Positions 41,929 through 53,966 of a DNA stretch of 55,580 nucleotides are shown one piece after another. The notes beneath the pieces were generated by a model. It was not told the DNA's origin. It saw only the letters and a list, made by a program, of their open reading frames with translations, and did not search any database. The position numbers and the translations under genes were made by a program. How positions within the stretch are numbered: the first letter of the stretch is position 1; every line of letters begins with the position of its first letter. The stretch is from Deltaproteobacteria bacterium (GTDB lineage Bacteria; SAR324; XYD2-FULL-50-16), in contig JAOUME010000002.1 of the NCBI GenBank assembly GCA_029881655.1, positions 1-55,580 of the forward strand, in the 5' to 3' direction.

Positions 41929-42164
41929 TTTTTCTGAATTAAAATAATCTTATATCAATCGATTCTTATTTGATTAATTGATTTCTCCTGACGCATTATT
42001 GTCGATGAGGGTTCATTTCGTCAAATAGAACAAAAACCTTTATCCGCGTAACAATTTGAGTTGAACAGTGCAGGATATTTGTATATTCTAATTTATATAA
42101 AAGGCGATTAATTTTTGAATTGTCTATGTTGTTTAAATCAATAGTCATCATAACAAGAGAGAAT

Positions 42165-43364
42165 ATGGGAAAAGTATTAATCTATACCAAAGGGTATTGT
42201 TCTTATTGCGTTGCCGCAAAAAATTTATTCGATAAAAAAAAAGTACCCTACGAGGAGATTCGCATTGACGAGCATCCCGAGCAAAAAGAAACCATGGTCG
42301 AGAAATCAAGAGGCCGAAAAACGGTGCCACAGATTTTTATTAATGATCAGCATATAGGTGGATGTGATGATCTATTCGAATTGGAAAATCAGGGCAAGCT
42401 AAACGCCCTTTTAGAAACTGAGGAGGCCGAGGCCAAGATCCAACACCGCAGGGTCATCATCTTGGGAACTGGTCCTGCAGGCTATACGGCCGCAATTTAT
42501 ACGGCCAGAGCAAATCTTAATCCTTTGATTTTTTCGGGTCCGCAAAAGGGGGGGCAGTTGACGACCACGACTGAAGTGGAGAATTTTCCCGGTTTTGAAA
42601 ACGGTATCGATGGCAATGAACTGATGAACAATATGGAAAAACAAGCCAAACGATTTGACACGGAAATTGTTTTTGGTGAAATCACCAAGGTTGATCTTTC
42701 CAAAAAGCCCTTTCTTCTTTATCAGAACAACGAGGTTTTCTCCTGCGACAGTCTGATTATAGCGACTGGCGCGACCGCCAAATATCTGGGTCTTGAAAGT
42801 GAGGATCGTTTTAAAAACCGCGGCGTGTCGGCTTGCGCGACTTGCGATGGCTTTTTTTATAAAGGCCAAAAGGTGGCTGTGGTCGGTGGTGGGGACACCG
42901 CCTTGGAGGAGGCTGCTTATTTGACCAATTTTTGCGAAAGGGTGTTTTTGATTCACCGCAGGGACGAGCTCAGGGGCAGCAAAGCGATGCAGGATCGGGT
43001 TTTGGCCAACGAGAAAATTGAGATTGTCTGGGATTCGGTGATTGAAGAGGTGCTTGGGGATGATCAGCAGGGCATGACCGATCTCACGGTTAAAAATGTC
43101 AAGACAGGCCAAATCAAACCACTGGGCGTGAAAGGGCTTTTCGTCGCCATCGGGCACAAACCCAACACCGATCTCTTCAAAGGGGTTCTGGATATGGATG
43201 CCAGCGGATATCTCCTGCCGAGTCCAGGAAGCTGCAAGATGAATATTGATGGCGTTTTCGCCTGTGGAGATGTCATGGATAGCCATTATCGTCAAGCTAT
43301 TACAGCCGCAGGGATGGGTTGTATGGCAGCGATCGATACTGAGCGTTGGCTTGCCGGGCAATAA
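42165..43364 (+). CDS. trxB: glutaredoxin-thioredoxin reductase fusion protein
   Basis: The N-terminal Grx has CSYC, TVPQIFI and GGCDD. A low-Mr TrxR follows with GTGPAGYTAA, the redox CATC and the NADPH motif HRRDELR. I place the start at ATG 42165; the ORF track begins at TTG 42120. Confidence 0.85.
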   Translation: MGKVLIYTKGYCSYCVAAKNLFDKKKVPYEEIRIDEHPEQKETMVEKSRGRKTVPQIFINDQHIGGCDDLFELENQGKLNALLETEEAEAKIQHRRVIILGTGPAGYTAAIYTARANLNPLIFSGPQKGGQLTTTTEVENFPGFENGIDGNELMNNMEKQAKRFDTEIVFGEITKVDLSKKPFLLYQNNEVFSCDSLIIATGATAKYLGLESEDRFKNRGVSACATCDGFFYKGQKVAVVGGGDTALEEAAYLTNFCERVFLIHRRDELRGSKAMQDRVLANEKIEIVWDSVIEEVLGDDQQGMTDLTVKNVKTGQIKPLGVKGLFVAIGHKPNTDLFKGVLDMDASGYLLPSPGSCKMNIDGVFACGDVMDSHYRQAITAAGMGCMAAIDTERWLAGQ

Positions 43365-43424
43365 CCTTTTCCGACTCCCCCTCTTTGATAAGAAGTCTCC
43401 TTTTTAACAATCAACAACGAATCA

Positions 43425-43451
43425 GGCCTGGTTTTCCCGGGCCTTTTTTTT
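43425..43451 (+). terminator. rho-independent terminator after trxB fusion gene
   Basis: The stem pairs ggcctgg (43425-43431) with ccgggcc (43437-43443). A T8 run follows at 43444-43451. Confidence 0.7.
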
Positions 43452-43660: not shown

Positions 43661-44080
43661 ATGTCCGTCAAACTATTTGATAAAAATCTGGCTCTTCTGG
43701 AAAAGGCCATGCAGTTGCAAACCAGAAGAAACACCATGATCGCCTCGAACATTGCCAACCGTGAGACACCCGGCTACAGGGCGCAGGATCTGGTTTTTGA
43801 AAAGGAATTGATGAGAGCTCATAACAGCGACAGGCCGGGACCTTTAAATATTAATGATCCCAGGCATTTTGACGGAATCAAACGAGAGCCGATTGAGTTG
43901 GTCAAGGGAGAACAGATCAACAGCTTTAACCCTGATCCAAGAATGGACGGAAATACGGTCAACCTGGATAAAGAAATGACGAAACTCGCAGAAAATCAAA
44001 TGATGTATCAGGCCGCGACTAGAGCGGTTAACTGGAGACTCCGGATGCTTAAATCCGCTATCACTGAAGGAGGTCGATAA
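43661..44080 (+). CDS. flgB: flagellar basal-body rod protein FlgB
   Basis: SNIANRETPGY is present. Length is 139 aa. Confidence 0.9.
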   Translation: MSVKLFDKNLALLEKAMQLQTRRNTMIASNIANRETPGYRAQDLVFEKELMRAHNSDRPGPLNINDPRHFDGIKREPIELVKGEQINSFNPDPRMDGNTVNLDKEMTKLAENQMMYQAATRAVNWRLRMLKSAITEGGR

Positions 44081-44520
44081 TGACGATGTTTGATTCCATG
44101 AATGTCAGTTCATCGGGTCTCTCGGCGCAAAGACTCCGAATGAAGGTTATTACCAGTAATATCGCCAATGTCAATACGACCAGGACTCCAGGCGGAGGAC
44201 CCTATCGCAGGAAAGATACCATTTTCGCGGCCATGCCCTCCAACCAGAGTTTTCTGGAGCAATTGAAAAACCAGGAACAGGATCAAGGAATCAGAGAGGT
44301 CAAGGTCGTGGGAGTCGTCGAGGACTCAAGGCCGCCGAAAATGAAATATGATCCCTCTCATCCGGATGCCAACGAAGAGGGGTACGTGGAACTTCCCAAC
44401 ATCGATATCGTGGAGGAAGTTACGAACATGATGATTGCAAAACGGTCTTTCGAAGCGAATATCGCGGCCATCAATGCTACCAAACAAATGATCATCAAAA
44501 CTTTGGAAATCGGTAAATAA
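44080..44520 (+). CDS. flgC: flagellar basal-body rod protein FlgC
   Basis: SNIANVNTTRTPGG is present, with a C-terminal rod motif. The TAATG overlap links it to flgB. Confidence 0.9.
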   Translation: MTMFDSMNVSSSGLSAQRLRMKVITSNIANVNTTRTPGGGPYRRKDTIFAAMPSNQSFLEQLKNQEQDQGIREVKVVGVVEDSRPPKMKYDPSHPDANEEGYVELPNIDIVEEVTNMMIAKRSFEANIAAINATKQMIIKTLEIGK

Positions 44521-44544
44521 ATAGATTCATAACTAGGGTTTAAA

Positions 44545-44886
44545 ATGTCGGAAATCAACAAAATCAACACCCAAATAATTGAAATCAAACAAAAACAAGT
44601 CAAAGGAGACAAGGAAACTCAAGCTCCAGCGAGAGGTTTCGAGGATCAATTGCTAAAAACGGTTCAAAAACTGGAAACCATCGGAGAAGAAATCGACGGG
44701 TTGCTTGAAAGCCAAAATGGGCAGACTCCAGGAAAAGTGACAAGCGAGGTTAGCAATGTCGCGAACTACATCAAGAGCATGGAAGGGTTGGTGGAAAATC
44801 TTTCCGGCAAATCGACATCCAAGGTCAAATCGGCAAAATTTGTCGCGGATCAATACAATAAAATGAACCCAAAAAAAGAATCCTGA
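44545..44886 (+). CDS. hypothetical protein embedded between flgC and fliE
   Basis: The 113-aa hydrophilic, helical-looking ORF has tight spacing to both neighbours. I recognised no family. Confidence 0.5.
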   Translation: MSEINKINTQIIEIKQKQVKGDKETQAPARGFEDQLLKTVQKLETIGEEIDGLLESQNGQTPGKVTSEVSNVANYIKSMEGLVENLSGKSTSKVKSAKFVADQYNKMNPKKES

Positions 44887-44922
44887 TCACAACAACCAAA
44901 ATTATATCACGGATAAAATAAG

Positions 44923-45222
44923 ATGATTAAATCGATAAATAACAACCCGCTGATCTTAAAACAAAGCCCAACTCTTTCTAAAAGCGAATCCAAATCCTCC
45001 ACCCAGCAAATCGCGGCCAGCTTCGAAAAGGTATTCGATGAAGTCAACCAATCCCAGCTTCAAGCCGAATCAAAAATCAACGAGATGGTGGCCGGGAAAA
45101 GCAAGGACATCCCAGGTACGATTATGGCAATGGAAAAAGCGGATGTTTCTATGAAAATGATGATGGCGATAAGAAACAAGGTCGTCAGCACTTATGAGGA
45201 AATCATGCGCATGCAGGTTTAA
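44923..45222 (+). CDS. fliE: flagellar hook-basal body complex protein FliE
   Basis: The 99-aa protein has the C-terminus AIRNKVVSTYEEIMRMQV, typical of FliE. Confidence 0.9.
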   Translation: MIKSINNNPLILKQSPTLSKSESKSSTQQIAASFEKVFDEVNQSQLQAESKINEMVAGKSKDIPGTIMAMEKADVSMKMMMAIRNKVVSTYEEIMRMQV

Positions 45223-45302
45223 AGCAAAACTATGGGTTGGTTCGAATCAAAACCGTTTTTCATTTTCAAATAACTTAAAAAGCCACCAAAAAGGATGTAA
45301 CC

Positions 45303-46937
45303 ATGGCAGAACAAACAGCGAACTTTGTAGCGGATTTTCAAACGCAATTTCAGAATTTTTTCCAGGGCTTATCCATCGGGAAAAAAATCTTTCTGTTTAC
45401 AAGTTTGGGGTCGATTCTTCTTGGGTTGGCAGCGTTTATCTTTTTTTCGCAACAAGTAACCTGGGCTCCTCTGGTCAATGGTCTCAATCAGGAAGACGCG
45501 TCCAAAGTCGTGCAGAAACTGGATGAATTGAACATCAAATACATTCTTCAGCCAGGTGGCGGCTCAATCATGGTGGCAGGTGAGGATGTTGACAGGGTCC
45601 GCCTGCAAATCGCTTCAACCGGAATTCAGATGGGCGGCCTGGTCGGTTATGAGATTTTCGATAAAAACAACCTGGGCGCAACCGAGTTTCAACAGAAAAT
45701 CCAGTATAAAAGAGCTTTGGAAGGGGAGTTGTCGAGGTTAATCACCAAGATCAAGCAGATCAACAAGGCTAAGGTATCCCTTGCGATACCAGAGAAATCA
45801 CTGTTTGTTGACGAGCAAAATAAGCCCACCGCATCAGTGGTTCTGGAGATTGCAGGAGGTCAAAGACTCTCCCAATCGGGGATCATGACCATATTGAATC
45901 TGGTATCAGGCGCGGTTGAGGGGATGAGCATTGATGGCGTTAAGATAGCCAATCAAAACGGCAAATTGCTCTCTAAAGGTTTAACCGACCCGGACGGATC
46001 GGATCTCAGGGATAAAAACCATCACTATCAGGTCACCGTTGAGAAAAGACTTGAAGAAAAACTAATCACCCAGTTGGAAAAAGTAACAGGAAAAGACCGG
46101 GTTGAGGTCCGGGTATCTTTAGCGTTGGATTTTGACTCCAGCGAGATCACCGAGGATCTGGTGGATCCCGACAGTTCGGCTGTTTTAAGCGAAGAAGCGC
46201 TCAACGAGAGCATGACCGGATCAAGGTCCATACCGGTCGGCGTTCCAGGTGTCACGTCCAATTCCCCTGAAGTCAGGGCAGGCGCCAGTGAAATCGCCAA
46301 CGTATCGGATTCCAATAAAAAAACCAAGAGAACCAACTATGTCAACAGCAAGAGCCATATCGTCCGTAAAAAATCCGCAGGAGCGATCAAAAGAATGAGC
46401 GTGGCGGTGCTTTTGGATGGAATCTATGAGTATGTTCGTGATGAAAGCGGTGAGATTACAGGAAAGGAGCCGGTTTATAATCCCTGGTCGCCCAAGGACT
46501 TGGAGATTATCGAACAAATCGCCAAGCAGACCGTGGGTCTTAACGAAAAAAGAGGCGATACCATAACGGTACAAAATATCCGTTTTACCAAGCCTTTGGT
46601 TGAACAGGAAAAGTTAAAACAACAAAACCGTGAAACCACTAGAAAATTTATTATCGATTTGGTACGTTATGTCTTAGTCGGAGCGATCATCGTGGTCTTA
46701 GTTTTCATGGTCATCAGACCGATGGTGATGAAATTGTCAGCCAAGCCGGAAGATCTGGATCTGTTGATGGGACTGCCAACCACGATCGGAGAACTCGAAG
46801 GCGAAGAACTCGAAATCCCGACGGAAAAGGAAACGGGGATACCGCCGCGAGACAAGATTATCGATATCGCGAGACAAGATCCGCTCAAGACCGCTTCTTT
46901 GGTGCGTACATGGTTGCGTGAGAAAAAAGGCCCTTAA
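45303..46937 (+). CDS. fliF: flagellar MS-ring protein FliF
   Basis: The 544-aa protein has N- and C-terminal TM segments flanking a large periplasmic region. Its position after fliE supports the call. Confidence 0.85.
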   Translation: MAEQTANFVADFQTQFQNFFQGLSIGKKIFLFTSLGSILLGLAAFIFFSQQVTWAPLVNGLNQEDASKVVQKLDELNIKYILQPGGGSIMVAGEDVDRVRLQIASTGIQMGGLVGYEIFDKNNLGATEFQQKIQYKRALEGELSRLITKIKQINKAKVSLAIPEKSLFVDEQNKPTASVVLEIAGGQRLSQSGIMTILNLVSGAVEGMSIDGVKIANQNGKLLSKGLTDPDGSDLRDKNHHYQVTVEKRLEEKLITQLEKVTGKDRVEVRVSLALDFDSSEITEDLVDPDSSAVLSEEALNESMTGSRSIPVGVPGVTSNSPEVRAGASEIANVSDSNKKTKRTNYVNSKSHIVRKKSAGAIKRMSVAVLLDGIYEYVRDESGEITGKEPVYNPWSPKDLEIIEQIAKQTVGLNEKRGDTITVQNIRFTKPLVEQEKLKQQNRETTRKFIIDLVRYVLVGAIIVVLVFMVIRPMVMKLSAKPEDLDLLMGLPTTIGELEGEELEIPTEKETGIPPRDKIIDIARQDPLKTASLVRTWLREKKGP

Positions 46938-46960
46938 GTCTAACCCTTTGTTAAAGGTCA

Positions 46961-47884
46961 ATGGAAACCTACAAACCGCCTGTTTTCGATAGAGATTCTG
47001 ATAATTCAGGGGAATCAGCCGACTTTAAGCCTTTCGATACAGGGGATGCTAGCGGCCAGGCCGAGATGTTCGAGGCGGATGTTCTCTCTGAAGACAAAAA
47101 AGCCAGACCCGCTAAAAAAGAGTTCGTCACCTTTACTTCCAAACAATTCAATGAGGAAGGGACTCTTTTAACCAACGTCGAGGAGTACACCAAAAAAATC
47201 CAGATTGAGGCGGAGAGCCATGTCCGCCTTGTCCGCAATGAAGTGGACCTGATAAAATCAGAAATCGAGTTGGAACTCGCTAACGCCATCATCAAAAGAA
47301 GAGCTGCCGAAGAGGAAGCCCAAAAAATCGTTCAGGAAGCTGAAAACTCAAGGGAAGAAGTCATCAAAGCCGGTACGGAAAAAGGGTTCAAGGCTGGTTT
47401 CGAGGATGGCTTAAAACAGTTTAAGCAACAAAACGAACAAAACACCCAAGAGATCCTGAATCTTTTAAACGATATGAAAAAGCTGAGGCAAACCCTGCTT
47501 CAAAAACACGAACAAAACTTCGTCAACCTAAGTACTCTCATCGCTAAAAAAATCGTTCATAAGCACCTTGCCACCAATAAGGCCGCCATATTGAACATGT
47601 TGAAAAAAAATATCAGCCGGCTTGATGGAATGGGTCTCGTCACGATTTCTCTTAATCCAGACGAATATAATTTTATCGCACAGTATCAAAGCGAACTATC
47701 TACTTTTTTAGGGGAAGATCAGGTTATCAAGCTTAAAATCAATCCTGAGGTACAGTCTGCCGCGCCCCTGATCGAGACGGACTTCACCGTCATCGACCTG
47801 GATATCAAAAAACAGTTTAAGGAGGTTGATAAACTCTTTGATACTCTGGTTGAAGACCGAAAAGGGCTTTTTAAACTTTCTTAG
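46961..47884 (+). CDS. fliH: flagellar export regulator FliH
   Basis: A charged coiled-coil N-half is followed by GFKAGFEDGLKQ and a C-terminal domain (ISLNPDEY ... IETDFTVIDLDI). It lies immediately upstream of fliI. Confidence 0.7.
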   Translation: METYKPPVFDRDSDNSGESADFKPFDTGDASGQAEMFEADVLSEDKKARPAKKEFVTFTSKQFNEEGTLLTNVEEYTKKIQIEAESHVRLVRNEVDLIKSEIELELANAIIKRRAAEEEAQKIVQEAENSREEVIKAGTEKGFKAGFEDGLKQFKQQNEQNTQEILNLLNDMKKLRQTLLQKHEQNFVNLSTLIAKKIVHKHLATNKAAILNMLKKNISRLDGMGLVTISLNPDEYNFIAQYQSELSTFLGEDQVIKLKINPEVQSAAPLIETDFTVIDLDIKKQFKEVDKLFDTLVEDRKGLFKLS

Positions 47885-47935
47885 CTATAAACCGAAGCAG
47901 TAATACATTCCTCGCGACAAACGATAAAGGTAATC

Positions 47936-49264
47936 TTGTTCGATATAAAAGCCTATTTTGACGCAGTCGAGAATCAAAAATCAGCTCCGCTTCATGGGAA
48001 AGTGGAAGAGGTTATCGGTTTTTTGATCAAGGCTCATAATCCAGGACTTAATATCGGCAGCAGTTGTGAGATACTCAACCCCGAGACTGGTGAGACTCAG
48101 TTGGGCGAGGTCGTAGGTTTTAAGGAGGGCAAGATTCTGGTCATGCCCATCGGTGATATAAGGGGCATCGGACCACATAACCATATCATCCCTTCGCGGG
48201 ACCGGTCTTTTGTTTACGTCGGCGATGAATTGCTGGGAAGGTCCATTGACGGACTTGGAGAACCGATTGATGGACTGGGACCCCTTAACTGCGAAAAAAA
48301 AGTCAGGATGTACAAAGATCCCATCAATCCTCTCCATCGAAGAAGAATCGACAGCTCACTCGATGTCGGCATCAAGTCCATTAACGGGGTTTTAACCTGT
48401 GGGAAAGGCCAGAGACTCGCGATCCTGTCTGGCTCAGGTGTCGGAAAATCGGTCTTGCTGGGGATGATGGCCAGAAATACCACGGCTGACGTGAATGTGA
48501 TTGCTCTGGTCGGGGAAAGAGGACGTGAAGTCAAGGAATTCATCGAAAAGGATTTGGGTCCCGAGGGATTGAAACGCTCTGTAGTCGTAGTGGCAACCTC
48601 AGATCAATCACCCTTAGCCCGAATTCGAGCGGCCTACATCGCCACATCGGTAGCGGAATATTTCAGGGAAGAGGGTAAGGACGTTTTGTTGATGATGGAC
48701 AGCGTCACCCGTTTTGCGATGGCTCAAAGAGAAGTCGGGCTCGCGGCGGGAGAACCTCCCACGACCAAAGGTTATCCGCCGTCTGTTTTCTCACTGCTCC
48801 CCAAACTTCTTGAAAGAGCCGGTAATTCGAAATCCAAGGGCTCGATCACCAGTTTTTATTCGGTGCTGGTCGAGGGGGATGACCCCAACGACCCCATTGG
48901 AGATGCCGTGAGATCGATCGTTGATGGACACATATTGCTGGACCGTGAAATCGCCGCCATGGGACATTATCCTGCCATCGATGTTCTGCGCTCAAGAAGC
49001 AGGGTAATGGTGGATGTCGCACCAGAGACCCACCAACTCAACGCCAAAAGACTGATCCAGACCTATTCGATTTATAAGGAAGCTGAGGATTTAATTAATA
49101 TCGGTGCTTATGTTAAAGGATCAAATCCTAAAATTGATTATTCAATTAGAAAAATCAATGAGATAAATCGGTTTTTACAGCAGGCGATCAGTGAAAAATT
49201 CACGATGATTGAATGCGAAGCTGTGCTGGAACAAATATTTCAGGATTTTCCTAATGATTTTTAA
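47936..49264 (+). CDS. fliI: flagellum-specific ATPase FliI
   Basis: Walker A GSGVGKS and Walker B LLMMDSVTR are present. The 442-aa protein has a TTG start. Confidence 0.9.
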   Translation: MFDIKAYFDAVENQKSAPLHGKVEEVIGFLIKAHNPGLNIGSSCEILNPETGETQLGEVVGFKEGKILVMPIGDIRGIGPHNHIIPSRDRSFVYVGDELLGRSIDGLGEPIDGLGPLNCEKKVRMYKDPINPLHRRRIDSSLDVGIKSINGVLTCGKGQRLAILSGSGVGKSVLLGMMARNTTADVNVIALVGERGREVKEFIEKDLGPEGLKRSVVVVATSDQSPLARIRAAYIATSVAEYFREEGKDVLLMMDSVTRFAMAQREVGLAAGEPPTTKGYPPSVFSLLPKLLERAGNSKSKGSITSFYSVLVEGDDPNDPIGDAVRSIVDGHILLDREIAAMGHYPAIDVLRSRSRVMVDVAPETHQLNAKRLIQTYSIYKEAEDLINIGAYVKGSNPKIDYSIRKINEINRFLQQAISEKFTMIECEAVLEQIFQDFPNDF

Positions 49265-49272
49265 AGAGATTT

Positions 49273-49896
49273 ATGTCAAGAACATTAATATTGGTGGATA
49301 TCCAAAACGATTTTTGTCCCGAGGGAGCGCTAGCGGTTCCAAAGGGTAATGAGGTAATACCCGTTGCCAACCGTCTTTTGGAGACAAAAGGAGTATTTGA
49401 TCTAATCATCGCTACGCAGGACTGGCATCCGGCTGATCATCTCAGTTTCGCAAGCCAGCACGCGGGAAGTATCGGCGACGTGATCGAACTGGGAGGCTTC
49501 ACCCAAGTTTTGTGGCCGGATCATTGTGTCCAAAACACCATGGGAGCGGAATTAACGCCTGGTTTAAAAAAAGACAGGATAGACAGAATTATATACAAGG
49601 GTATCCATCGTGAAATTGACAGTTACAGCTGTTTTTTTGAAAACGACCATAAAACAGCGACAGGCCTTGAGGACTTTCTCCGGCTTAAAGGAGTTACGAC
49701 TGTTTTTATAATGGGCTTGGCTACCGATTACTGTGTCAAGTACTCTGTGCTGGATGCTTTAGAGTTGAACATGGAAACGGTCGTTATCCAGGATGGGTGC
49801 AGGGGGGTTGAATTGAATCCTGGAGATGTCAAACAGGCGGAAATGGAAATGAGGCAGAAGGGCGCCAGATTTTGTGGCAGCCATGAACTTATCTAG
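49273..49896 (+). CDS. pncA: nicotinamidase/pyrazinamidase
   Basis: It has an isochorismatase-like fold with LVDIQNDFCP and the catalytic Cys in ATDYCV. Confidence 0.85.
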   Translation: MSRTLILVDIQNDFCPEGALAVPKGNEVIPVANRLLETKGVFDLIIATQDWHPADHLSFASQHAGSIGDVIELGGFTQVLWPDHCVQNTMGAELTPGLKKDRIDRIIYKGIHREIDSYSCFFENDHKTATGLEDFLRLKGVTTVFIMGLATDYCVKYSVLDALELNMETVVIQDGCRGVELNPGDVKQAEMEMRQKGARFCGSHELI

Positions 49897-49951: not shown

Positions 49952-50929
49952 ATGAGTTCGATAAGACGCAAAAGAAGGAACAATCGGTTTTTATTTTTTT
50001 TCTTGGTGACGCTTCCCTTTTTAGTCATTATCTTCACTGTAGGCGGTTACCTGTTTCTAAATGTAAATGAAACATACCGAGCAAAGGGGTGCGAACCGCT
50101 TAAGAAGGATGTGATTCAACCGTTTGATTTCGAGGAGCAGCAGGACATCCGTTTTGCGGCGATTGGAGACGCTGGGACCGGTGACGAGGCTCAGAAAAGG
50201 ATTGCTCAATCCCTTGAGAAGGTCTGTCTCTTAAAAGGATGCAATTTCGTATTAATGTTAGGAGATAATTTTTATCCTGACGGTATCCATTCGGTTACAG
50301 ATGATCAGTTCAAGGAAAAATTCGAGGATATCTATAGAAATTTCAAGATCCCTTTTTTCGCGGTTTTAGGTAACCATGATGTTCATGGAGATCCAAATGC
50401 CCAACTGTACAGAAGCCTTAATAGCGAGGTTTGGCGCATGCCGAATTTCTATTACCTTTTTAATGCCGGCCCCGCCAGTTTTTTAGGATTGAACTCGAAC
50501 TGTTCCCCCTTTAACTGGAAAGAGCAACAAGCAAAACTGGCCAAGGAAAAAACACCTTGGAAATTCGTTTTTGGACATCATACTATCTACAGTAGCGGCA
50601 CACACGGCAACGCGAATGTTTTATTAAGGGGACTTTGGCAGTACTATTTCGAAGAGGATGCCGATTTTTATATATCGGGTCATGACCATCAATTGGAACA
50701 TCTTCAGGTAAAGGGACAAAAGACACATTTTATCGTAAGCGGCGCTGGCGGGAAAAATTACAGTTCGCTTTCTGAAAGAAAAAAAACCAACAAACATAAC
50801 AGCAACTCTAAATTTATCTATCAAAATAATGGATTTGTGCTATTTGAGGTTGCGAAAAAACAGGTTCTGGTTGATTTCTTCGATGGAGACGGAAAGAGCC
50901 TGTATCAGTTTAAACAAATCAAGAAATAA
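49952..50929 (+). CDS. membrane-anchored metallophosphoesterase (purple-acid-phosphatase-like)
   Basis: It has an N-terminal TM segment and the motifs GDAGTGD, GDNFY, GNHD and GHDH. Confidence 0.8.
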   Translation: MSSIRRKRRNNRFLFFFLVTLPFLVIIFTVGGYLFLNVNETYRAKGCEPLKKDVIQPFDFEEQQDIRFAAIGDAGTGDEAQKRIAQSLEKVCLLKGCNFVLMLGDNFYPDGIHSVTDDQFKEKFEDIYRNFKIPFFAVLGNHDVHGDPNAQLYRSLNSEVWRMPNFYYLFNAGPASFLGLNSNCSPFNWKEQQAKLAKEKTPWKFVFGHHTIYSSGTHGNANVLLRGLWQYYFEEDADFYISGHDHQLEHLQVKGQKTHFIVSGAGGKNYSSLSERKKTNKHNSNSKFIYQNNGFVLFEVAKKQVLVDFFDGDGKSLYQFKQIKK

Positions 50930-50949: not shown

Positions 50950-51957
50950 ATGTTCCGTAAGTTATCTAGAAGGGAATTTCTGAAGGGAATTGCTGTTGGG
51001 AGTTTAACCGCGCCCATGCTACTGAGTGGTTTTTCAGAAATTCTGCTGGCCCAATCGGAAGTTGAAAGGCAAAATATTATCTGGTTGCATGCCCAGTCCT
51101 CACGGGTTCATCAGTCGATGATCTTTAGTTTGCCCGATTTGCTGGATCTTTTCCAGAAGCGCTTTAATGTATTGAATTACGAACACTTAAAAAATCTGGC
51201 CAAGGAAGGTGACACGGATAAATTTGAGAAAACGCCCATTTTGATATTGGAGGGATATTTTCCCCATGAAAATGTCAAACCTCAAGATAACCTTTTGACC
51301 CAATTGATAAACGTCTCAAAGACCGTGATCATGTTGGGTAGTGAGGCTTCCTACAGCGCAAATGCCCCAGAGGGATTTTCTGACTTGGAAAAAGAATCTC
51401 TCACCCACACCACAACCCCTTTCATCCGACTACCTGGAATGCCCGTTCATTCTAGGCATTTGCTCGGGACGTTAAATCATCTACTTTTATATGGTTTCCC
51501 GGAACTGGATGAATACCGCAGACCGACCATGTTTTATAGCGAGAAAATTTGTGTAAGATGCGAGTACAACAGCGATTTTAATGCGGGAAACTTCGTCAGT
51601 CATTTTGGTGAAAAGGAAGGTTGCCTGTATCTTTTGGGTTGCAAGGGAAAGGTGACTTACAACTCTTGTCCGGTTGAGAAGTCCAATGGTACCATGAGTT
51701 GGTGCGTCAGTGCGGGGTCACCCTGTATTGGCTGTTCCGAGCCCATTTATCCCGATCATTCCGGCCTGGGATTATTTGGGCAGATAAGCAAGGATAAAGC
51801 GGGGGTTAATTCCGCTTTGATCCGCCATCTCAATGAGATCGCCTTAGGCGCGGTTGCCTTGACTGTCGGTGGCTTGACTTTCCATACTGCCAGCAAAAGA
51901 ATGTCTCTCCCATCCAGTATCGAAACTTCATTTACATACAGGGAAGACAAGGAATGA
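50950..51957 (+). CDS. [NiFe]-hydrogenase small-subunit homologue lacking proximal-cluster cysteines
   Basis: It keeps the Tat motif SRREFLK and a C-terminal TM anchor. It has eight Cys: KICVRC, EGCLYLLGCKG, YNSCP and SWCVSAGSPCIGC. The usual N-domain Cys sites instead read IIWLHAQSSRVHQS, IMLGSEASYS and RLPGMPV. Confidence 0.8.
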   Translation: MFRKLSRREFLKGIAVGSLTAPMLLSGFSEILLAQSEVERQNIIWLHAQSSRVHQSMIFSLPDLLDLFQKRFNVLNYEHLKNLAKEGDTDKFEKTPILILEGYFPHENVKPQDNLLTQLINVSKTVIMLGSEASYSANAPEGFSDLEKESLTHTTTPFIRLPGMPVHSRHLLGTLNHLLLYGFPELDEYRRPTMFYSEKICVRCEYNSDFNAGNFVSHFGEKEGCLYLLGCKGKVTYNSCPVEKSNGTMSWCVSAGSPCIGCSEPIYPDHSGLGLFGQISKDKAGVNSALIRHLNEIALGAVALTVGGLTFHTASKRMSLPSSIETSFTYREDKE

Positions 51958-53429: not shown

Positions 53430-53966
53430 ATGGGAATTTATAATCTAAGCAACAAATATTACAATTCAATTCAAAAGAGGCTAAGGGTTTGGGGATTACC
53501 CTTTCTCCTATTAGTCGCCTACATTAGTGGTTTCGAGTTGGTCAGAGACAATCAGTTTCAAATATTAACCAGGATTCAACTTAGTTTTTTACATAGTCTC
53601 GGCGGTATTCTTGTTTCTCTTTTGTGGATAAGTTTGACCTATGATCTTGTTTTGAAAATTATTAGAAAGGAAAAAAAGATAGTGATGCAAAATGGAACGA
53701 GAAAGCTTGTTTTGATTCCTAGTTCGATTTATACCAAAAGAGACTGGGTCGATTTTTTGTTTTATTTTGTGCTTTTTATTCTTTGTCTGGTAGGTGTTCT
53801 GCTTTATTTAAGTCGGTGGGGAGGTATCGTTTTTTTTGATTCTCACGTCATTGCAATTTTACATCAGTTTATCGGCTGGACATTTATATCTTTGATTCTG
53901 GTGAAGTATTATTTATCCTTCACCTTGTGGTTTAAGAATTTGGTTCGGTATTTAAGAGAGTATTGA
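53430..53966 (+). CDS. small b-type-cytochrome-like membrane protein (Ni/Fe-hydrogenase cytochrome b family-like)
   Basis: The 178-aa protein has four hydrophobic segments. Histidines are kept in FLHSLGG and AILHQFIGW. The usual RxWHW reads RVWGL, and the second TM4 His position reads K. Confidence 0.55.
   Translation: MGIYNLSNKYYNSIQKRLRVWGLPFLLLVAYISGFELVRDNQFQILTRIQLSFLHSLGGILVSLLWISLTYDLVLKIIRKEKKIVMQNGTRKLVLIPSSIYTKRDWVDFLFYFVLFILCLVGVLLYLSRWGGIVFFDSHVIAILHQFIGWTFISLILVKYYLSFTLWFKNLVRYLREY

Follow-up and report, generated by a model that had tools for sequence, protein, structure and literature searches.

The window analysed here, a stretch of 55,580 nucleotides (contig JAOUME010000002.1 of assembly GCA_029881655.1, positions 1 to 55,580 of the forward strand), comes from a Deltaproteobacteria bacterium of the SAR324 phylum (GTDB lineage XYD2-FULL-50-16). 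It carries a cassette of three genes coding for homologues of the small and large subunits of group-1 [NiFe]-hydrogenases and for a cytochrome-b-like membrane subunit (Table 1). The cassette has the G+C content of the whole window (43% in both), whose other genes are those of an ordinary chromosome (PolA, Lon, glycogen phosphorylase, a Mur ligase, a PAS histidine kinase). Neither hyp maturation genes nor a maturation endopeptidase were found among the proteins of the window, and a promoter and terminator scan gave nothing above background inside the cassette.

A search of 5.8 billion proteins retrieved about 46 relatives of the small subunit at 32-53% identity, separated by a sharp gap from canonical small subunits at 35% or less. 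About 59 relatives of the large subunit showed the same gap to canonical enzymes. Gene context and ligands were tabulated for 88 loci (L001-L088), the best 80 from a scan of one genome per GTDB species plus eight contig loci obtained earlier. Ligands were also compared in a set of 238 proteins that includes the best 150 representatives of a library of 1.84 billion proteins. For register, the family (alignment A3) was aligned profile to profile with 32 canonical small subunits (alignment A4) using hhalign.

Table 1. Coordinates of the cassette, its sequence features and its neighbours in the window
Feature	Position (nt)	Strand	Evidence or remark
Small-subunit homologue, 335 residues, whole open reading frame, ATG start	50950..51957	+	PF14720, TIGR00391, PF01058, Foldseek
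Tat motif SRREFLK, residues 6-12	50965..50985	+	TIGR01409, 18.6 bits (cut-off 16.7)
Degenerate first proximal-cluster motif IIWLHAQSSRVHQS, residues 43-56	51076..51117	+	hhalign and MAFFT register
S51 at canonical Cys17 position	51100-51102	+	hhalign, MAFFT
H54 at canonical Cys20 position	51109-51111	+	hhalign, MAFFT
E132 at third proximal Cys position (GTCA replaced by GSEA)	51343..51345	+	E or D in nearly all members
M164 at fourth proximal Cys position (PGCP replaced by PGMP)	51439..51441	+	Position variable across the family
C-domain segment with eight invariant Cys	51550..51735	+	HMMER against solved structures, family invariance
C-terminal transmembrane anchor IALGAVALTVGGLTF, residues 294-318	51829..51903	+	AlphaFold2 helix
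H312 of the small-subunit anchor	51883-51885	+	
Large-subunit homologue, 488 residues	51954..53420	+	PF00374; start overlaps small-subunit stop (ATGA)
Four-transmembrane cytochrome-b-like membrane subunit, 178 residues	53430..53966	+	Weak PF01292; FdnI profile match
H55 of the membrane subunit	53592-53594	+	
H145 of the membrane subunit	53862-53864	+	
Pentapeptide-repeat protein, 600 residues	36584-38386		PF00805, 12 stretches
Glutaredoxin-thioredoxin-reductase-like fusion	42120-43364		PF00462 and PF07992
Terminator-like hairpin	43424-43444		
flgB, flgC, 113-residue frame, fliE, fliF, fliH, fliI	43661-49264	+	
Unnamed open reading frame after flgC, 113 residues	44545-44886	+	
fliF	45303-46937	+	
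fliH	46961-47884	+	
Isochorismatase-family gene	49273-49896		
Metallophosphoesterase with N-terminal membrane anchor	49952-50929		21 nt upstream of small subunit

Architecture of the cassette proteins

The small-subunit homologue is recognised through its carboxyl-terminal part, which passes the cut-off of the NiFe/NiFeSe small-subunit C-terminal domain PF14720 (83 bits versus 27). Its N-domain stays below the PF01058 cut-off (19.7 bits versus 27) and the whole protein below that of TIGR00391 (hydA; 121.2 bits versus 179.5). The overall fold is nevertheless that of a hydrogenase small subunit, with many NiFe small subunits matched by Foldseek at a template modelling score (TM-score) of about 0.6 and E of about 1e-12. 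The N-domain was modelled by AlphaFold2 with a predicted local distance difference test score (pLDDT) of 70-92. Within the family the C-domain is the most conserved part of the protein, with a mean column identity of 0.76 versus 0.57 for the N-domain.

A preliminary description of the locus, made from its sequence, had reported a twin-arginine translocation (Tat) motif and a hydrophobic C-terminal anchor, IALGAVALTVGGLTF, in this protein. Both are borne out: the RR pair of the Tat motif is found in 35 of 35 full-length family members, and the anchor peptide is predicted to be helical. Near the cytoplasmic end of the anchor lies H312, conserved throughout subfamily A, the subfamily of the window protein, and mostly replaced by Q in subfamily B. 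This is the membrane side where the cytochrome-b-like subunit has lost a His pair (see below).

The large-subunit homologue belongs to PF00374 (182.5 bits) and scores far below the more specific hydrogenase model NF033181 (191 versus a cut-off of 600); the cut-offs of NF045518 and NF045520 are not reached either. Its fold is intact, as the AlphaFold2 model (pLDDT 91.9, predicted TM-score 0.93) superposes on [NiFeSe] large subunits with a TM-score of 0.83. In sequence (E 4.6e-30) as well as in structure, the best matches of the protein are the periplasmic [NiFeSe]/group-1a enzymes, such as those of Dm. baculatum (PDB 1cc1/4kl8) and D. vulgaris Hildenborough (2wpn).

The third protein has four hydrophobic segments with positively charged loops on the cytoplasmic side, as expected of a four-helix membrane protein. 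PF01292 matches it weakly (E 0.005; score 17 versus a cut-off of 30.1), and for its homologue at L001 a precomputed PF01292 match is listed without any mark of weakness. The family profile aligns with E. coli FdnI (1kqf chain C) at E 1e-3.

Cofactor ligands kept and lost

The small-subunit homologue has exactly eight Cys, C201, C204, C225, C231, C240, C252, C259 and C262, all in the C-domain. They were mapped by HMMER alignment to the solved small subunits of D. gigas (1frv_A) and D. vulgaris (1h2a_S) with E of about 1e-26. C204, C225 and C231 fall on three distal-cluster Cys of these structures, and C201 on the distal His (ETVHDNC versus EKICVRC). C240, C259 and C262 coincide with the medial Cys, while C252 takes the place of the Pro found in enzymes with a medial [3Fe-4S] cluster (NWPVQAG versus SWCVSAG), giving the four-Cys form of the medial site. 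All eight are invariant in 44 family members of 32-53% identity and in 34 genomic loci. On these alignments, invariance and mapping together are far beyond chance.

The eight Cys had been described before in the peptides KICVRC, EGCLY, LGCKG, YNSCP, SWCVSAG and SPCIGC, all of which are present, and the replacement of the distal His and of the medial Pro by Cys was recognised in the same preliminary description. Its proposal of two all-Cys [4Fe-4S] sites gains support from the mapping on solved structures, from the profile-profile alignment and from invariance across the family. The small-subunit homologue is thus predicted to hold a medial and a distal [4Fe-4S] cluster.

The two sites differ in how far they set the family apart. 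A four-Cys medial site is common to many canonical relatives and is not special to the family. The distal ligands are His and three Cys in every canonical sequence examined and four Cys in every family member; among the 238 proteins the all-Cys distal site never occurs together with an intact proximal site and is found only where the proximal cluster has been lost. The double replacement is compatible with cluster assembly, because activity is seen in an engineered hydrogenase whose 12 ligand positions are all Cys (PMC4070099). This enzyme, the Alteromonas macleodii 'G1' variant H230C/P285C, combines all-Cys distal and medial ligation; unlike the family it is artificial and retains the proximal cluster and the NiFe site (PMC4070099). 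A survey of natural Fe-S ligand variants has no natural distal His-to-Cys replacement among its entries (PMC4070099).

No Cys is found anywhere in the small-subunit N-domain. The four proximal-cluster positions are occupied by S51, H54, E132 and M164, the absence of the cluster having been foreseen along with the peptides IMLGSEASYS and RLPGMPV, both present, in place of GtCA and vPGCPP. The first proximal motif, IIWLHAQSSRVHQS, also stands, but its start needed correction: it had been placed at nt 51082-51117 and begins six nucleotides earlier (Table 1). A pairwise HMMER alignment gave a gapped register with S50 and V53 at the first two positions. It was replaced by the S51/H54 register, since the profile-profile alignment is ungapped there and MAFFT agrees.

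Across the family, position 54 is H in most members and otherwise Q, N or D, position 132 is E in most and otherwise D, and position 51 is S, A or G (also N, C or D). Position 164 is unconstrained (M, N, A, V, T, Q, L, E, H and others). The set differs in subfamily B, which has D/G, N/L/V, D and V. The preliminary description had held that alternative ligands (Cys, His or Asp) at the proximal site would speak against cluster loss. H54 and E132 are formally such ligands, and to that extent the objection applies; the variation in the family argues against a cluster. An alternative proximal cluster on His and Glu was considered and set aside as unlikely, as positions 54, 51 and 164 vary with non-ligand residues and no Cys is available. 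We know of no precedent for a cubane without any Cys ligand, and here, where Cys ligands are lacking and one of the four positions is unconstrained, a [4Fe-4S] cluster is not credible. It is simpler to suppose that a donor-acceptor polar pair, H/Q/N54 with E/D132, plugs the proximal hole.

Positions 54 and 132 seem to co-vary: H mostly goes with E, D54 accompanies D132 in P0002, P0010 and P0013, and D54 accompanies H132 in P0041. This suggests a direct contact or, in the D/D cases, a bound cation. A single member, P0038, has Cys at the proximal site, two adjacent ones at positions 50-51 in the motif GHCCENH. A flavodoxin-like flavin mononucleotide site in the emptied N-domain was also considered and rejected: the likeness of the QSSGIH loop to the phosphate loop of flavodoxins is shared by the canonical CTGCS loop, hence ancestral.

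In the large-subunit homologue both CxxC pairs that bind nickel and iron are missing. The L2 motif RxCGxCxxxH has become LLSSKNGIFH, with S59 and N62 at the ligand positions, and the C-terminal DPCxxCxxH has become YPQALDGTQ followed by a stop, with Q482 and D485. No family member has Cys at any of these positions; S59 and D/E485 are nearly invariant, and positions 62 and 482 vary. The catalytic Arg of the PRG motif, presumably R479/R509 in E. coli numbering (PDB titles name R479K), corresponds to G415 (EAPGGSL), 70 residues upstream of the last Cys position, and is G, S or T in every family member in alignment A2. The protein ends at ...DGTQ and has no C-terminal maturation extension, the terminal His position being Q, L, R or H across the family.

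The membrane subunit has only two His that are invariant across both subfamilies, H55 and H145. According to the positive-inside rule, read from the sequence, they lie at the periplasmic ends of transmembrane helices 2 and 4. They align with the helix 2 His and the first helix 4 His of FdnI, which we take to be the pair that binds haem bP. The other two FdnI positions, the helix 1 His and the second helix 4 His, are R/W and K in the family, so that two of the four ligands of a two-haem cytochrome are present. Like the FdnI/HyaC-type dihaem cytochromes b (PF01292), the family has four transmembrane helices and two aligned His; unlike them, it would retain at most one haem b. This haem is probably the one on the periplasmic side, the cytoplasmic-side haem apparently being gone. 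In FdnI the latter adjoins the quinone site.

The preliminary description had concluded that the electron wire towards the large subunit is cut and its outward half preserved. The cut is upheld; the outward half has also been trimmed, as a single His pair is left. To judge by the ligand positions, no target is left for the wire, since its large-subunit partner has neither the four NiFe Cys nor the catalytic Arg.

A family of SAR324 bacteria and its gene neighbourhoods

The 88 loci fall into two groups. In L001-L034 (34 loci), whose records are named SAR324, Lambdaproteobacteria, Deltaproteobacteria or simply 'bacterium', there is no Cys at canonical Cys112 and Cys148, the two unambiguously aligned proximal positions used for this comparison. 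The medial and the distal site are both CCCC, and the NiFe positions of the large subunit are without Cys. In L035-L088 (54 loci), from other phyla, Cys stands at both Cys112 and Cys148, the distal site is HCCC and the large subunit has CC / CC / H; the medial site is mostly CCCC or CPCC, with a few other variants. The 238-protein set shows the same split.

In a neighbour-joining tree of large subunits the Cys-less clade is supported by 50 of 50 bootstraps and sits on branches that are long relative to canonical enzymes; subfamily A is found in 50 and subfamily B in 48 of the 50. The family is therefore a monophyletic clade with two subfamilies, which among named records occurs only in SAR324-affiliated bacteria. 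The order small subunit, large subunit, cytochrome-b-like subunit is kept in both subfamilies, including loci with unrelated neighbours, and all three genes are full-length, intact open reading frames in about 34 genomes. The ratio of nonsynonymous to synonymous substitution rates (dN/dS), computed for the closest usable pair, L001 and L016, was nearly the same for the small subunit (0.035) and the cytochrome-b-like subunit (0.036) and reached 0.068 for the large subunit. Ratios this low point to strong purifying selection on each of the three genes. The cassette is conserved across the SAR324 phylum.

JGI, NCBI or UniRef list several members under the names 'Ni,Fe-hydrogenase I small/large subunit', 'nickel-dependent hydrogenase large subunit' or 'Cytochrome-c3 hydrogenase...'. 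The literature searched holds no description of a Cys-less, Tat-exported group-1-like pair, an absence that is no proof of novelty.

Within subfamily A, the genes flgB-flgC-fliE-fliF-fliH-fliI usually precede the cassette on its own strand (the window and 14 loci). A metallophosphoesterase and/or isochorismatase-family gene often stands between fliI and the cassette, with coaE and vanY downstream. No terminator stands out between flgB and vanY. At L001 the other flank of the cassette carries fliW-csrA-flagellin-flgK-flgN. The flagellar link is missing in L009, L012 and all subfamily-B loci, whose neighbours (S24 peptidase, YitT, PhoU/PHO4, acyl-CoA dehydrogenase) give no functional clue. The flagellar synteny reads as lineage gene order rather than as a sign of function.

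Several details of these neighbourhoods may be recorded. In the window the flagellar genes lead straight into the cassette; the 113-residue frame after flgC has homologues in other loci without a Pfam match on record, and there is no fliG-sized open reading frame between fliF and fliH. The metallophosphoesterase recurs in L003, L005, L015, L019, L021 and L022, and in L006 its homologue shares 4 nt with the start of the small-subunit gene. The isochorismatase-family gene, which precedes it in the window, is the direct upstream neighbour of the cassette in L004. The hairpin just upstream of flgB is the only strong terminator-like hairpin in the region, and the glutaredoxin-thioredoxin-reductase-like fusion located before it also precedes flgB in L002, L004 and L006. 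Further upstream lies the 600-residue protein made almost entirely of pentapeptide repeats. In subfamily B the sole flagellar neighbour is a FliR-type export gene (PF01311) of L025 (3465-4379, minus strand), about 1.6 kb upstream of the cassette.

Proposed role of the complex and rival readings

The alignments show as ancestral losses the four NiFe Cys, the catalytic Arg, the maturation extension, the four proximal Cys and the cytoplasmic-side His pair. The cassette product is almost certainly not a hydrogenase. Our preferred account, which we hold to be probable with a good measure of reserve, is that the cassette codes for a three-subunit membrane complex descended from a periplasmic, membrane-bound group-1 [NiFe]-hydrogenase, inactive on H2 and working as a periplasm-facing redox module. 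By analogy with its relatives, the Tat-signalled small subunit would carry the signal-less large subunit across the membrane as a folded dimer, to be held there by the C-terminal helix of the small subunit and the four-helix cytochrome-b-like partner. The cofactors left, the distal and medial [4Fe-4S] clusters and one haem b, would form the middle of the old electron wire. Conserved polar pairs would close the holes of the lost metal centres: H/Q/N54 and E/D132 on the small-subunit side, S59 and D/E485 on that of the large subunit. Much less certain is that electrons move between the membrane (the quinone pool or a partner, through the haem) and a periplasmic partner or site. The large subunit may act as a scaffold and accompany export, or its surface may have been repurposed for binding; H2 would be neither oxidised nor produced.

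Several points weigh against this account of a redox module. The cluster and haem content is deduced from homology of the ligands. Both ends of the wire are gone; no donor or acceptor can be named, because the H2 site and the cytoplasmic-side haem are both absent, and a role in electron transfer is extrapolated from ancestry. It may also be that the clusters persist mainly because the C-domain cannot fold without them. The AlphaFold2 model of this domain is of low confidence (pLDDT 35-55), and the modelling of two cubane sites that had been proposed as a check speaks neither for nor against them. There is no conserved neighbour gene pointing to a substrate. Finally, H54 and E132 stand at former ligand positions, where a non-canonical, non-cubane metal site is possible.

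In an alternative that we regard as unlikely on present evidence, the vacated proximal and NiFe pockets were turned into a new site for a cofactor, a metal or a substrate, and the complex is an enzyme or sensor of a new kind, supplied by the medial cluster. Conserved polar residues specific to the family lie at the old sites (S51, H54, E132, R169, H170 and N176 in the small subunit; S59, E75 and D485 in the large one), purifying selection on the large subunit is almost as strong as on the small subunit, and the tendency of D54 to occur with D132, seen in three members, would be easier to explain around a bound cation. Complex I, which made its quinone site from the NiFe pocket of a group-4 hydrogenase, offers a parallel. 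On the other side, position 54 takes H, Q, N and D, and the residue also changes at large-subunit positions 62 and 482 and at small-subunit position 164, a poor pattern for a catalytic or metal site; the residue set of subfamily B is moreover a different one. In its more specific form, about which we are equally doubtful, the complex would act in the periplasm as an oxidoreductase or redox sensor of a new kind, confined to the SAR324 phylum, and its site would be connected to the single periplasmic-side haem by way of the medial and distal [4Fe-4S] clusters. With the same low probability, five small-subunit residues (S51, H54, E132, R169, H170) and two large-subunit residues (S59, D485) might line that remodelled site.

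A non-redox structural or accessory part tied to the flagellum, with Fe-S clusters used for folding only, is very improbable. Such a role would fit the position of the cassette directly downstream of the flagellar genes in the window and 14 loci, the flagellar genes on its other flank at L001, and the stretch from flgB to vanY in which no terminator stands out. However, L009, L012 and all subfamily-B loci keep the three-gene cassette without the flagellar link, and coaE and vanY sit in the same block with no flagellar role. In addition, the invariant His pair of the membrane subunit argues for a haem and hence for a redox function.

There is next to no chance that the complex is a working hydrogenase with unconventional ligands. 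Both subunit folds are kept and public records name some members as subunits of Ni,Fe-hydrogenase I, but the NiFe Cys, the catalytic Arg and the proximal Cys set are missing in every member and family cut-offs are widely missed (NF033181, 191 versus 600; TIGR00391, 121 versus 179.5). To our knowledge no hydrogenase works without Cys or Sec ligation of Ni. A decaying relic, with pseudogenes on their way out, is just as improbable and was ruled out: many formerly essential residues are gone and the branches are long compared with canonical enzymes, but the dN/dS values of 0.035-0.07 mean that the genes are not pseudogenes, the open reading frames are intact over their full length in about 34 genomes, and the eight Cys and two His are invariant at 30-50% overall identity.

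The systems closest to this putative redox module are the membrane-bound group-1 [NiFe]-hydrogenases, E. coli hydrogenase-1 (HyaABC, PDB 4gd3/6g94) and the membrane-bound hydrogenase of C. necator (HoxKGZ). They share with the cassette the gene order, a Tat signal on the small subunit only, a C-terminal transmembrane anchor, the folds of the soluble subunits and the medial and distal ligand positions. The cassette differs from them in its lack of the NiFe Cys, the catalytic Arg, the C-terminal extension and the proximal Cys, in the distal His-to-Cys replacement, in a membrane subunit with two of the usual four His, and in scores far under the family cut-offs. What it resembles is the half of such an enzyme that transfers electrons. 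The [NiFeSe]/group-1a periplasmic enzymes have in common with the family a four-Cys medial site for a [4Fe-4S] rather than a [3Fe-4S] cluster; unlike the family they have Cys/Sec ligands at a Ni-Fe site, a proximal cluster, and a His among the distal ligands.

Complex I (NuoB/NuoD), Mbx and Ehr resemble the family in having a large subunit without NiFe Cys that is nevertheless conserved in a membrane redox complex. Their ancestors are cytoplasm-facing group-4 enzymes, the proximal cluster (N2) is the only one they keep, and they are not Tat-exported. The family, in contrast, is of group-1 origin, faces the periplasm, bears a Tat signal and has medial and distal cluster sites without the proximal one; its best relatives are group-1 periplasmic enzymes, and it does not belong with the complex I-like, Ehr or Mbx proteins.

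SAR324 bacteria are among the most abundant lineages of the deep ocean. Calls of H2 oxidation made by homology without a check of the metal ligands could count the cassette genes wrongly, and HyaAB is among the entries of a SAR324 pangenome study. The ligands need to be checked case by case, because some SAR324 genomes do hold real group-1l enzymes.

All hydrogenase-derived non-hydrogenases known to us (complex I, Mbx, Ehr) have a group-4 origin and retain the proximal cluster. The SAR324 family derives from group 1 and would retain the other half of the wire. In it the NiFe site and the proximal cluster have been lost together with the distal His, which Cys replaces, and the three changes travel together. 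Its small subunit, a putative natural two-cluster form with an all-Cys distal site, may be used to study the roles of the distal His and of the proximal cluster. Should the emptied pocket prove to have been remodelled, the family would represent a second, independent case of a hydrogenase turned to another function, after the path from group-4 hydrogenase to complex I.

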